Virus record (IMG/VR): IMGVR_UViG_2609459854_000001
Span: 1-38,666 of that record
Length of the DNA: 38,666 nucleotides
Reading direction: 5' to 3' (one strand)
From: a virus
Taxonomy: Duplodnaviria; Heunggongvirae; Uroviricota; Caudoviricetes
Shown: positions 14,340 to 34,234 of the stretch, piece by piece
How positions within the stretch are numbered: the stretch's first letter is position 1
Layout: every line of letters begins with the position of its first letter
Position numbers and translations under genes: made by a program
Notes under the pieces: model-generated
Told to the model about the DNA's origin: nothing
Seen by the model: the letters and a program-made list of their open reading frames with translations, nothing else
Databases searched by the model: none

Positions 14340-14729
14340 TCAATTATCTCCTTTAAAGGAGTCGTATTCACCCCAATCAGCAAACCCAATCGGTCTTTTA
14401 GGGGTCTCTAAGCATAAGCGTTTTTTTCGGATTAGCAGGACATTTATTTGAGATACATGCTGAACAAGTTCTACAGGACTGCCATCCTCCAGAGTACCAA
14501 TGAAAGAAATTAATGATGGATTCCAGTAGCTTATGTCTGTGAAATGAAATTCAATGTTTTTACCAAAGCTAGCTAGTTGTCCTCCTACCTCATACTCTTC
14601 TTCAAGTTCACGGTGAAAATCATTTATCCAGCATATAAGGCGTCTATGAAATTCATTTGCAAGATTGTAGTCCTTTGGAACATATGGCTGTGAGTATTTG
14701 AGGAAATCATTCATGTAGTTATTTGTCAT
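14340..14729 (-). CDS. hypothetical protein (about 129 aa), reverse-oriented moron downstream of the lysis cassette
   Basis: AT-rich ORF convergent with Rz1; start set at the ATG preceded by AAGGA (track ORF extends to 14756); no signal peptide, no recognisable motif. Confidence 0.45.
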   Translation of the reverse strand: MTNNYMNDFLKYSQPYVPKDYNLANEFHRRLICWINDFHRELEEEYEVGGQLASFGKNIEFHFTDISYWNPSLISFIGTLEDGSPVELVQHVSQINVLLIRKKRLCLETPKRPIGFADWGEYDSFKGDN

Positions 14730-14827
14730 CAGGGCGTCCTTTACGAGCATAACCATTGTTACTTAACGGATTGAAACGCTATTAAATAACATGGTTTCTA
14801 TCATAATTTCTATCCGGAGTTTTCCAT

Positions 14828-15178
14828 ATGCCGCCACGAATCCCAAAAGCCTGCCGTGTTCGCGGCTGCCGTTCTACCACTACAGATCCGTCAGGCTACT
14901 GCGAAAATCATAAAGGTGAGGGCTGGAAATCCTACAAGCCAGGTCAATCACGGCAGCAGCGCGGATATGGAACAAAGTGGGAAGTCATCCGGGAGCGGAT
15001 ACTAAAGCGCGACAAAGGGTTATGTCAGAACCATCTTCGGCAGGGAGTTGTGAAGCAAGCGTCCTGCGTGGACCACCTCAAGGCGAAGGCTCACGGCGGC
15101 ACTGATGAAGACAGCAACCTTGAGAGTCTGTGCTGGTCGTGTCACGCAGTGAAGACCGCGCGTGAGCGGTTCAGGTGA
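14828..15178 (+). CDS. HNH endonuclease (terminase-associated)
   Basis: 116 aa; Cys/His-rich with ...CQNH...VDHLKAKAHGGTDEDSNLESLCWSCHAVK...; immediately upstream of the small terminase. Confidence 0.85.
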   Translation: MPPRIPKACRVRGCRSTTTDPSGYCENHKGEGWKSYKPGQSRQQRGYGTKWEVIRERILKRDKGLCQNHLRQGVVKQASCVDHLKAKAHGGTDEDSNLESLCWSCHAVKTARERFR

Positions 15179-15304
15179 GAATTGATGTCATCATCAGCCA
15201 GGGGAGGGGGAGGTCGAATCTTTGCAACCGCGCGCCTTCCGGACTGCCCGCCCCATCGTTTTTTTATACCCGCGAAAAATGAAATTTAACCAGGAGTGCC
15301 GCAT

Positions 15305-15799
15305 ATGGCTGGAACGGCGGGGCGTTCCGGGCGTCGCCCCAAGCCAACGGCGCGCAAGGCGCTGGCCGGAAACCCCGGCAAGCGAGCCCTGAATAAAGAT
15401 GAACCTGTTTTTACGCCCATCAAAGGTGTTGAGCCACCGGAGTGGTTCGCTGAAGAAGAGCTCCCTCTCGCCACGATCATGTGGCAACTGACAACCAAAG
15501 AACTCTGCGGTCAGGGCCTGCTGTGCGTGACTGACCTCGCAGTGCTTGAGCGGTGGTGCGTGGCCTATGAGTTCTGGCGACGTGCTGTGAAAAATATTGC
15601 CAGACAGGGCAACACCATCACCGGTGCAATGGGCGGCATGGTCAAAAATCCGGAGCTGACCGCCAAAAAAGAACAGGAGTCCGAGATGAGCAGTACGGGG
15701 GCAATGCTCGGACTCGACCCCAGCAGCCGCCAGCGTCTGATTGGCCTGGCGGGGCAGAAGAAAGCCACTAACCCGTTTCTGAAAATTATCGAATCATGA
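15305..15799 (+). CDS. terminase small subunit
   Basis: ATG at 15305 with CAGGAG RBS; basic N-terminus; directly upstream of and overlapping the large terminase. Confidence 0.7.
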
Positions 15800-17529
15800 G
15801 CCGGAAATCTTACCCCAACGTAAATGCTGCAAATCAGTATGCCCGGGATGTCGTGCGCGGAAAGATTGTTGCCTGCCAGTTTGTGATTCAGGCCTGCCAG
15901 CGCCATCTTGATGACCTGATGGCGGAAAAAAGTAAGTCGTTTCGTTACCGCTTCGACAAGGACCTGGCTGAACGGGCCGCCAAATTTATTCAGCTGTTGC
16001 CGCACACCAAGGGTGAGTGGGCATTCAAGAGGATGCCCATCACGCTGGAGCCGTGGCAGCTCTTTGTGATCTGCTGTGCGTTTGGCTGGGTCAATAAAGG
16101 GTCCCGGCTGCGCCGCTTCCGGGAGGTGTATACCGAAATCCCCCGTAAGAACGGCAAATCGGCAATCTCTGCCGGTGTCGCCCTGTATTGTTTTGCCTGT
16201 GATAACGAGTTTGGCGCGGAAGTGTATTCCGGTGCCACGACAGAGAAACAGGCGTGGGAAGTCTTTCGTCCGGCGCGACTGATGTGTAAACGCACACCCA
16301 TGCTTACGGAAGCGTTCGGGATTGAGGTTAACGCCTCAAACATGAATCGTCCGGAGGATGGCGCGCGGTTTGAACCGCTGATCGGTAACCCCGGTGATGG
16401 ATCATCACCCCACTGTGCGGTGGTGGATGAATATCACGAGCACGCCACCGATGCGCTTTACACCACGATGCTTACCGGGATGGGGGCGCGACGTCAGCCA
16501 CTGATGTGGGCCATTACTACTGCCGGGTACAACATTGAGGGGCCGTGCTACGACAAGCGGCGGGAAGTTATCGAGATGCTCAACGGCTCGGTACCCAACG
16601 ATGAACTGTTCGGGATCATCTATACCGTTGACGAAGGTGACGAATGGACCGACCCGCAGGTGCTGGAAAAAGCCAATCCAAATATTGGGGTGTCGGTTTA
16701 CCGTGAGTTTTTGTTAAGTCAGCAACAGCGTGCGAAAAATAACGCCCGTCTGGCAAACGTCTTTAAAACAAAACACCTCAATATCTGGGTGTCGGCGCGT
16801 TCGGCGTATTTCAACCTGGTGAGCTGGCAGAGCTGCGAGGATAAATCACTTACCCTTGAGCAGTTCGAGGGGCAGCCGTGCATTCTGGCCTTTGACCTGG
16901 CGCGTAAGCTGGATATGAACAGCATGGCGCGACTTTATACCCGCGAGATTGACGGTAAAACGCATTACTACAGTGTGGCCCCGCGTTTCTGGGTACCGTA
17001 TGACACGGTGTACAGCGTCGAGAAAAATGAAGATCGCCGGACCGCCGAACGCTTTCAGAAATGGGTGGAAATGGGCGTCCTGACCGTTACCGATGGTGCA
17101 GAGGTGGATTATCGCTACATCCTCGAAGAGGCCAAAGCGGCGAACAAAATCAGCCCGGTCAGCGAGTCACCCATCGACCCCTTCGGGGCGACCGGGCTCT
17201 CACATGACCTTGCTGATGAAGACCTGAATCCCGTCACTATCGTCCAGAACTTCACCAATATGTCCGATCCGATGAAAGAGCTGGAAGCAGCGATTGAATC
17301 GGGACGTTTTCATCATGACGGCAATCCCATCATGACCTGGTGTATCGGCAACGTGGTCGGCAAAAACATGCCGGGTAACGATGATGTGGTGAAACCCGTC
17401 AAAGAGCAGGCGGAAAACAAAATTGACGGTGCAGTTGCGCTGATTATGGCGGTTGGCAGAGCCATGCTGTACGAGAAAGAAGACACGCTGTCTGACCACA
17501 TTGAGTCCTACGGGATCCGCTCGCTTTAA
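15796..17529 (+). CDS. terminase large subunit (HK97-like)
   Basis: 577 aa; N-terminal ATPase and C-terminal nuclease arrangement with conserved acidic motifs; position before the portal. Confidence 0.9.
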
Positions 17530-32795: not shown

Positions 32796-33233
32796 ATGTT
32801 TTATAGTCCATCATTAAACATTTTTGTGAATCCTGCGCTTAAGGATGATTACATTAATGCAAATTCATGGCCAGATGATGCTCTGGCTGTCAGTGATGAT
32901 GTTTATAATGAATTTGCAATCAATACGCCCCCATATGACAAAATTCGTGTTGCAGGAAAAAATGGATTACCCACATGGGCACTAATACCTCCACCATCGC
33001 ATGAAGAACTTATTCAACAGGCAGAATCAGAAAGGCAATTATTGCTTAATCAGGCCAACGAATACATGAACAGTAAACAATGGCCCGGTAAAGCCGCTAT
33101 TGGTCGTCTGAAAGACGAGGAACTGGCACTATATAATTTGTGGCTGGATTACCTGGACGCACTGGAACTGGTGGATACCTCCAGTGCTCCAGATATTGAA
33201 TGGCCTACACCTCCGGTAACTCAGGCCAGCTAA
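32796..33233 (+). CDS. tail fibre assembly protein (current orientation)
   Basis: 145 aa directly after the tail fibre; C-terminal ...EWPTPP... is typical of Tfa chaperones. Confidence 0.7.
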   Translation: MFYSPSLNIFVNPALKDDYINANSWPDDALAVSDDVYNEFAINTPPYDKIRVAGKNGLPTWALIPPPSHEELIQQAESERQLLLNQANEYMNSKQWPGKAAIGRLKDEELALYNLWLDYLDALELVDTSSAPDIEWPTPPVTQAS

Positions 33234-33630
33234 TCTCAGGAGCCGTCGAAGTGTCGACGGCTTTTACTTCTTTTTTGTAGTCCATCCAGGCGGATAGTTT
33301 TTCTTTATCTGTACTGCTGATATCACCAAGCATTAATTCCACTCGCCAGTCAGCTGTGACATTATCGGCATGAGCAAGTAACTGCATTCGCTGATTTTCA
33401 GCACGTGCGACATAATCAATCGCCGGAGATTTCAGTACCGGTAAACCATTTTCATCTGACGTGATTAATTTACCCCCTTCCTGCTGTCCGGCAATTAATT
33501 CATTGTATAAGTCTGTACTTATCTCAACAATGTCAGCAGGCATGTCGCTGTTTATACCATCAAAGAAAAAACCATTAGTCGATTTTGAGAAATAAATCAT
33601 AGATATACCTATACACCGATTGCTACCCAA
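33205..33630 (-). CDS. alternative tail fibre assembly protein (inverted orientation)
   Basis: 141 aa on the opposite strand, convergent with the first Tfa; C-terminal ...ISWPELPEV. Confidence 0.65.
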   Translation of the reverse strand: MGSNRCIGISMIYFSKSTNGFFFDGINSDMPADIVEISTDLYNELIAGQQEGGKLITSDENGLPVLKSPAIDYVARAENQRMQLLAHADNVTADWRVELMLGDISSTDKEKLSAWMDYKKEVKAVDTSTAPEISWPELPEV

Positions 33631-33986
33631 AAACAGGACCTTTCATATTTGACAATTTCTCCCTGAGATATACCGCCAACAATTATATAGAACTGTGATT
33701 TGGTGATATCAGAACAGTTCGCAATGCCCATTGCAGATATACCAGCCAACGACGTTGTATGTGGCACAGCCAACAGCGCAAGTGAACGATTTGGGAATGT
33801 TACCGGGTAAGTCACCGTATAGTTTGATGCTCCACTGACAATACCCCACTGAATAATCAGACCTGAAGGGAGTTTTTGAAAACCCGTTGATGAAAGTGAA
33901 CTGGCAAACGCCGCCATATCCGGAATTTGGTTTTGCCCGTTACCTACATTCCGTTTTGCCGCTTCTCCCAAACCAACGTTTATGAA
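33609..33986 (-). CDS. alternative promoterless tail-fibre C-terminal cassette (Sv-prime-like)
   Basis: Minus-strand frame reads ...FINVGLGE... across the crossover site and continues 120 codons; would fuse to the constant fibre N-terminus after inversion. Confidence 0.55.
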   Translation of the reverse strand, partial: FINVGLGEAAKRNVGNGQNQIPDMAAFASSLSSTGFQKLPSGLIIQWGIVSGASNYTVTYPVTFPNRSLALLAVPHTTSLAGISAMGIANCSDITKSQFYIIVGGISQGEIVKYERSCFWVAIGV

Positions 33987-34042
33987 AATGCAGAAATAAC
34001 GAGAAAATGGCATCATTCCTGCTTTTGTCAGAGGGAGCTACC

Positions 34043-34234
34043 ATGCTTATTGGCTATGTTTGCGTATCAACAAATGACCAGAAAATCGATCTACAACGTA
34101 ATGCGTTTAACTGTGCAGGATGCGAGCTGATTTTTGAAGACAAGATAAGCGGTACAAAGTCCGAGAGCCTAGGGCTGACAGTGCTGTTCTTGATGCAAAT
34201 TAAAGGATTTAATAGTGAGTTGCGGCCTTACTAA
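34043..34234 (+). pseudogene. truncated Gin/Hin/Pin-family serine DNA invertase (N-terminal ~50 codons only)
   Basis: MLIGYVCVSTNDQKIDLQRNAFNCAGCELIFEDKISGTK... matches the invertase N-terminus including the catalytic Ser, then diverges and stops; the rest is replaced by the 3' end of the convergent DUF262/DUF1524 gene. Confidence 0.7.

Follow-up and report, generated by a model that had tools for sequence, protein, structure and literature searches.

The gap between the HNH endonuclease and small-terminase genes of an SfV/e14-like Escherichia coli prophage is very probably an HK97-type cos site with a conserved upstream G-rich box

Introduction

The cos site of phage lambda comprises an upstream element on the last-packaged side (cosQ), a nicking site (cosN), and a downstream small-terminase site (cosB), and its cutting produces 12-nt 5' overhangs. 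Lambda packaging relies on the Nu1/gpA terminase, repeated R sites, and IHF, with no HNH nuclease. In HK97 the overhangs are 10 nt long and 3' (PMC9410871, PMC11331095). The minimal HK97 small-terminase (terS) site lies at +15 to +29; within it, the C:G at 21 is essential and the A-tract has to remain rich in A/T (PMC11331095). The HK97 papers define the terS site alone and do not mention the G-rich box that is discussed below, which is included in their fragment of -312 to +472; the structural work explains stalling and cutting by the downstream terS site alone (PMC9410871, PMC11331095).

Closer to the locus considered here are the e14-like phages SfI, SfV, SfII, and SfIV, which have HK97-type heads. 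The ends of SfI virion DNA were sequenced outward and compared with the prophage, and the sequence 5'-TGCCCGCCCC-3' was absent from both run-off reads (PMC3636060). Other described relatives are phiP27, an Stx2e phage and the type member of the P27 terS family, with an annotated cos-site, and the staphylococcal phages of the phiSLT/phi12 type, in which an annotated 10-nt cos also lies between HNH and terS genes.

Results and Discussion

The prophage and its packaging genes

The window, which is the whole stretch of DNA that was analyzed (38,666 nt; IMG/VR record IMGVR_UViG_2609459854_000001), matches the chromosome of E. coli CFSAN061769 at 100% identity, in which it is an e14/SfV-like prophage adjoining icd and carrying intE, xisE, and ymfK. 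SfI, by contrast, integrates at tRNA-thrW (PMC3636060). Packaging, head, tail, and lysis genes are all annotated as intact in RefSeq. Pfam and RefSeq annotation gave the HK97-type gene order HNH-terS-TerL-portal-protease-capsid, the portal gene after the large terminase (TerL) being assigned with Pfam, and the site under study lies between the HNH and terS genes, upstream of the HK97-type TerL, portal, protease, and capsid genes. Homologous HNH-terS junctions were found in 1112 of 5426 complete E. coli genomes, and the junction was present at ≥99% identity in 12 E. coli records. The features of the region, all on the + strand, are as follows.

14828-15178, + strand: HNH endonuclease gene, 116 aa, packaging accessory nuclease (PF01844, E 8e-9; HNH endonuclease in RefSeq)
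15179-15304, + strand: cos region, the whole noncoding gap from the HNH stop to the terS ATG
15201-15223, + strand: conserved upstream G-box, made up of the G-run (15201-15213), TCGAATCT (15214-15221), and TT (15222-15223)
15224-15244, + strand: variable spacer ending in GGAC, with the predicted bottom-strand nick after 15244
15245-15254, + strand: cosN equivalent, 10-nt cohesive end TGCCCGCCCC, identical to the SfI virion-end gap; predicted 3' overhang
15259-15265, + strand: T7 tract at +5 to +11 right of the cut, conserved in close relatives and T-rich at the same offset in the diverse set
15269-15283, + strand: candidate small-terminase binding site (cosB-like), CCCGCGAAAAATGAA, at +15 to +29, by analogy with HK97
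15275-15289, + strand: A/T-rich run AAAAATGAAATTTAA, noted in the preliminary description and conserved in P27-type relatives
15292-15296, + strand: Shine-Dalgarno sequence AGGAG of terS, 8 nt before the ATG, as read from the sequence
15305-15799, + strand: small-terminase gene, P27 family, 164 aa (PF05119 Terminase_4, E 2e-21)
15796-17529, + strand: large-terminase gene, HK97 type (PF03354 and PF20441)

The HNH protein was 30% identical to HK97 gp74 (E 2e-6), and its closest solved structure was the HNH protein of phage GVE2 (5h0m, E 6.5e-9). The TerL was 26% identical to HK97 gp2 (E 7e-30). HNH codons 65 to 69 (15020-15035), in the first zinc knuckle, read CQNH, versus CQLC in relatives. Because contigs L081 and L091 carry the same variant, it is a trait of a sublineage rather than damage.

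Several features elsewhere in the prophage were also observed. A DUF6173 gene (PF19670, E 4e-21; 14340-14756, - strand) lies between the lysis cassette and the HNH gene and resembles a moron-type insert placed directly ahead of the packaging module. Positions 37722-39087 of L116, corresponding to approximately 32821-34186 of the window, are a tail-fiber inversion region of the e14 type, with oppositely oriented tail-fiber assembly and gp53-like genes and an adjoining recombinase annotated as a truncated pseudogene. Immediately to the left of the window (L116 3719-4738), a gene with a KwaB-like domain (Kiwa anti-phage) lies between icd and the integrase end.

Content of the gap

A preliminary description of this DNA, made from its letters, had pointed to a G-rich noncoding gap between the HNH and small-terminase genes, with a G-run and A/T-rich sequence, as a candidate cos or packaging site of an HK97-like module. 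The coordinates and content of the gap were correct: the G-run is ggggagggggagg at 15201-15213, and A/T-rich runs are found at 15259-15266 (TTTTTTTA) and 15275-15289. The length, given as 125 nt, needed correction. Because the TGA stop of the HNH open reading frame is at 15176-15178 and the terS ATG, in agreement with RefSeq annotation and SfV orf1, is at 15305, the gap comprises 126 nt.

By chance expectation, the G-run and the 10-mer TGCCCGCCCC are each unremarkable when taken alone. For the G-run with ≤2 mismatches, 0.59 occurrences per window are expected, and 49 of 100 shuffles contained at least one; the 10-mer with ≤1 mismatch is expected 2.8 times per window. For the composite 20-mer GGGGNGGGNNGGTCRAATCY with ≤2 mismatches, the expectation is 0.01 per window, and its one occurrence was at 15202-15221. 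A weight matrix built from other phages scored 26.7 at the box, and the next best of 77,288 positions scored 7.3.

Searches of the gap for promoter-like and terminator-like sites found none, Rfam gave no match for it even at E up to 1, and ARAGORN found no tRNA in the window. A tRNA-like element was considered, as TCGAATC in the gap resembles a T-loop, and was rejected on the ARAGORN result and on flanks that are not complementary. A stable hairpin or cruciform was rejected as well, with a single-strand fold z of +0.9 and only short inverted repeats. In sequence, the G-run approximates the reverse complement of the C-rich 10-mer at 15245-15254, and the two were paired in the single-strand fold; this pairing is probably incidental, as the 10-mers of many box-bearing contigs are not rich in C.

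The cut site

The database records of SfV, SfIV, SfII, SfI, and ST64B all start within the homologous gap. The SfI record ends with TGCCCGCCCC and restarts at GTCGTTTTTTTATACCCGCG. The window contains the same 10 nt at 15245-15254, identical to the cohesive end mapped on SfI virion DNA, and the sequence to the right of it is 99% identical to SfI. Throughout the SfI/SfV/SfII/SfIV group, identity from the cut through terS was 99 to 100%, and the HNH-cos-terS-TerL order and the register of the box are shared. The window differs from this group in its left-side allele: its HNH gene is approximately 75% identical, and its spacer is different.

More distant systems place the cut similarly. The annotated cos-site of phiP27, CGCCCGCCCC, is at the homologous place and one base off TGCCCGCCCC, in a region with approximately 74% identity overall; a box, GGGGAGGGGCGGGTCAAATCCCTG, precedes it and CCCGCGAAA follows it. 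In the HK97 record, the terminal 10-mer and the HK97 box are as far apart as their counterparts in the window. HK97 resembles the window further in its homologous TerL and HNH proteins, in the sequence at +15 to +29, with a C:G step and an A/T tract, and in the modeled terS fold, but its terS has no detectable sequence similarity and its overhang is CGCCGCCAAA.

Because the 10-mer is missing from both run-off reads, we infer that the SfI overhang is 3', which the SfI paper does not state. With a 3' overhang, the bottom strand of the window would be nicked after 15244 and the top strand after 15254. The cut is between the G-run and the A/T run and in neither of them; both are flanking subsites.

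Taken as a whole, with the mechanism and the role of the box proposed below, sequence comparison makes it very probable that the gap serves as cos in an SfV/e14-like prophage that looks intact and whose head and packaging module are of the HK97 type. The SfI ends and the phiP27 cos-site support the packaging role that the preliminary description had suggested, and ends located elsewhere or headful packaging, which it had named as contrary outcomes, are contradicted by the SfI virion-end experiment. The cos site of this phage group was already known and is of an ordinary, already mapped kind. It is not of the lambda type. Although the upstream element, nicking site, and downstream small-terminase site have the same arrangement as cosQ, cosN, and cosB, none of the lambda traits was found in the window: the terS belongs to PF05119 and the TerL to PF03354, the relatives have a 10-nt end, no repeat family was found, and there was no match to the IHF consensus with ≤1 mismatch.

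The candidate small-terminase site

In the HK97 record, +15 to +29 reads CTAACCCGATTTTTT, and the numbering matches the published t16, c21, and t24 to t30. The corresponding sequence of the window, CCCGCGAAAAATGAA, is conserved in P27-type relatives. The motif CCCGCGAAA is located at +15 to +23 in phiE125 and one base further from the cut, at +16 to +24, in phiP27, and was also found in many contigs. Conservation of the +15 to +29 stretch across the diverse set was weak, as would be expected if this stretch co-varies with terS. These sequence comparisons support, but do not prove, a terS binding geometry at +15 to +29 that is the same as in HK97. The predicted model of the window terS has the HK97 gp1 fold.

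By homology to the SfI experiment, the concatemer would be cut at 15245-15254 during packaging, with the predicted nicks generating 10-nt 3' overhangs. The remaining steps are proposed by analogy with HK97. The P27-family terS would bind the CCCGCG and A/T-tract at 15269-15283 and, once bound, recruit TerL and the HNH nuclease. DNA would then be packaged rightwards from the terS side until, at the genome end, the motor meets terS bound at the next cos and stalls, and the DNA is cut. Comparative data suggest one further step, in which the box, at -43 to -21, would dock or position the HNH nuclease, alone or with TerL, with the bottom-strand nick being measured from the box.

Register of the upstream G-box

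The box of the window matches the 20-mer GGGGNGGGNNGGTCRAATCY with one mismatch, on the terS strand and 23 nt before the overhang. Its departures from the consensus, and from the SfV group, are one extra G in the run and TT in place of CT at 15222-15223 (positions 20 and 21). To compare registers, each cos was rebuilt by joining the right and left ends of linear records, which gave the following junctions (the slash marks the cut).

HK97: GGGCAGGGGGGGGGATCAAATCTTC...GAC/CGCCGCCAAA
SfV and SfI: GGGGAGGGGCGGGTCAAATCTCT...GGAC/TGCCCGCCCC
phiP27: as SfV and SfI, but with CGCCCGCCCC
phiE125: GGGGAGGGGGGAGAAAAAGTCT...GGGAC/CGCCCGCTTC
D3: GGGGTGGGGCGGGTCAAAACCTT...GGACACC/GCGCCCCCA

The box is thus present in HK97, D3, phiE125, phiP27, and the SfV group. 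In the window, SfV, SfI, phiP27, and HK97, the first overhang base follows the T of TCRAATC at a distance of 31 nt. In phiE125 TCRAATC is absent and the middle of the box has diverged, with the G-run and CT in the same register. The D3 box carries one extra G, and the D3 record ends one base earlier; for the bottom-strand nick of D3 to be in register, the overhang must have a length of 9 nt, which it reportedly has. The alignment of the six phages from box to cut was gap-free in five and had a one-base gap in D3. Weight-matrix scores were 23.2 for D3, 17.9 for HK97, and 13.7 for phiE125.

The spacer between box and cut varies in sequence and is fixed in length (23 nt from the 20-mer to the overhang). 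The distance from the box to the HNH stop is variable: 0 to approximately 100 nt in contigs with an upstream HNH gene, approximately 270 nt in HK97, and 22 nt in the window. From E. coli to Pseudomonas and Burkholderia hosts the box is kept, and the sequences on either side diverge. By position, the box is a counterpart of lambda cosQ, and we consider it a candidate subsite that is either cosQ-like or used for HNH docking.

Distribution of the box and its possible partner

Scanning IMG/VR with the 20-mer pattern recovered 102 stretches. Most motif-anchored stretches had the same layout: the box, CT, approximately 20 variable nucleotides ending in AC, a mostly C/G-rich 10-mer, and A/T tracts. 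At positions outside the search pattern, the 62 nonredundant sequences had C at position 20 (51/62), T at position 21 (52/62), and C before the cut (45/62). Eight viral loci end 21 to 23 nt past the 20-mer, at the predicted bottom-strand nick, and one ends at +32; in two loci, L021 and L084, the locus is the entire contig. Such stops may be physical genome ends from which the 3' overhangs were lost in library preparation.

Neighboring genes were counted for 75 nonredundant IMG/VR hits, with an HNH gene required on the same strand ≤800 nt upstream and TerL ≤3 kb downstream. An HNH gene was upstream of the box in 52 of 69, an HK97-type TerL was downstream in 47 of 60, and a P27-type terS in 44 of 65. 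When contigs with a close terS were sampled, 70 of 80 had the box with ≤3 mismatches, and most others had a degenerate copy. For a second sample, loci were selected by the terS peptide Kx[LV]xGNPGKR, with a distant member used for ranking; most were Firmicutes-like. Among the 56 nonredundant loci of this sample, a box scoring above all controls was seen in 4 of the 5 that have an HNH gene ≤800 nt away versus 1 of the 51 that do not (Fisher p = 7e-5). This association rests on five HNH-positive loci, and lineage is a confounder, since the loci that lack the box look Firmicutes-like. The fifth HNH-positive locus had a recognizable box with an insertion.

An HK97-type TerL was encoded by 49 of 50 box-less loci, at 31 to 35% identity versus the 26% between HK97 and the window. 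HK97 gp1 matched no Pfam family and had no BLASTP similarity to the window terS; HK97 carries the box nonetheless. The HNH counts, the TerL of the box-less loci, and the dissimilarity of HK97 gp1 suggest that the box follows the adjacent HNH gene and not the terS or TerL family. A box universal for P27-type terS or HK97-type TerL is rejected by the box-less Firmicutes-like loci. Firmicutes-like phages (IMG/VR contigs L197 to L276) that combine a P27-type terS with an HK97-type TerL carry a terminator-like hairpin in front of terS, where both an HNH gene and a G-box are lacking. The packaging site of these phages must be organized in another way.

The box is not universal where an HNH gene adjoins cos either, as phiSLT has no top-strand G-box. 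The best genome-wide matrix match in phiSLT was a weak, inverted G-run, GGGCAGGGGGGCATAAAATTTTA (L283 16679-16701, - strand), with a score of 6.8, below the control maximum of 8.7. It is located in the same gap, approximately 30 nt upstream of the annotated cos, and may be a diverged, inverted counterpart of the G-box.

From the sequence comparisons, the most likely role of the box is docking or positioning of the HNH nuclease. Tentatively, we propose more specifically that the G-run is part of a previously undescribed third subsite of HK97-type cos, 22 to 23 bp long and inherited with the adjacent HNH gene, and that the HNH nuclease, with TerL, may measure the bottom-strand nick from it. A text search of the literature for the box sequence found no relevant description; the novelty of the box is uncertain. 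No experiment was found in the literature in which any protein was shown to bind it.

Alternatively, the gap could be cos and the box a pure termination signal, read by TerL or the portal-motor in the manner of lambda cosQ, with the HNH nuclease making no sequence contact. The location of the box on the last-packaged side of the cut, as for cosQ, is consistent with this possibility, as are the homology of TerL between HK97 and the window and the small size of the HNH proteins, in which a separate DNA-recognition domain was not seen. However, the box does not track TerL: the box-less loci encode HK97-type TerL proteins closer in identity than those of HK97 and the window are to each other, and the box tracks the adjacent HNH gene instead. 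We regard a pure termination signal as doubtful.

It is also possible that the G-run or box has been kept by descent or for an unrelated role, as a ribosome-binding site, G-quadruplex, transcription signal, or RNA element, and that only the 10-mer and the terS site matter for packaging. The G-run alone does not exceed chance, and the sequence GGAGG (15209-15213) lies 8 nt before the TTG of a 56-aa open reading frame (15222-15392, + strand) that overlaps the start of terS in another frame. However, this frame is probably not a gene, because the start codon is CTG in most relatives, and a small open reading frame started by the G-run was rejected since the TTG is not conserved. An intramolecular G-quadruplex is unlikely, as the consensus has only three G-tracts, and for the gap the searches for an Rfam family, a tRNA, a terminator, a promoter, and a stable fold were all negative. 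Conservation of the box across hosts amid diverging flanks, at a fixed distance from the cut and a variable distance from the HNH stop, also argues against an unrelated role, which is improbable.

Another consideration is that the cos of the window might be decayed, leaving a prophage that is unpackageable through the drifted box, with its extra G and TT for CT, or through defects elsewhere. The nearest relatives have TCAAATCTCTGCGACC, compared with TCGAATCTTTGCAACC in the window, and the window has T at position 20, where most of the diverse boxes have C. Yet the same variants occur among the 62 boxes (G at the R position in 14/62 and T at position 20 in 8/62), and the window scores above D3, HK97, and phiE125 with the weight matrix. 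The intact annotation of the packaging, head, tail, and lysis genes and the 12 E. coli records with ≥99% identity at the junction are further evidence against decay, and we consider it a shade less probable still. Headful (pac) packaging, with the gap as a mere intergenic spacer, can be set aside as exceedingly unlikely, with no point found in its favor, as SfI virion ends are unique and map to the gap, the same cos, together with defined restriction fragments, is described in the SfIV paper, the TerL is HK97-type, and viral contigs end at the predicted nick.

Implications

Identification of the cos site helps annotation only, by defining where the genome ends lie in a prophage type that approximately one-fifth of complete E. 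coli genomes carry. The comparative result on the box matters more: HK97 serves as the structural model of cos packaging, and the downstream terS site is the sole site used in current models. The box provides a concrete target with which to evaluate in vitro what the HNH nuclease recognizes and which nuclease cuts which strand, and a simple predictor of genome termini in metagenomic HK97-like phages. If HNH docking is indeed its role, measurement of the nick from the box by the HNH nuclease would explain both why these phages need an HNH nuclease and how the 10-nt stagger is set.
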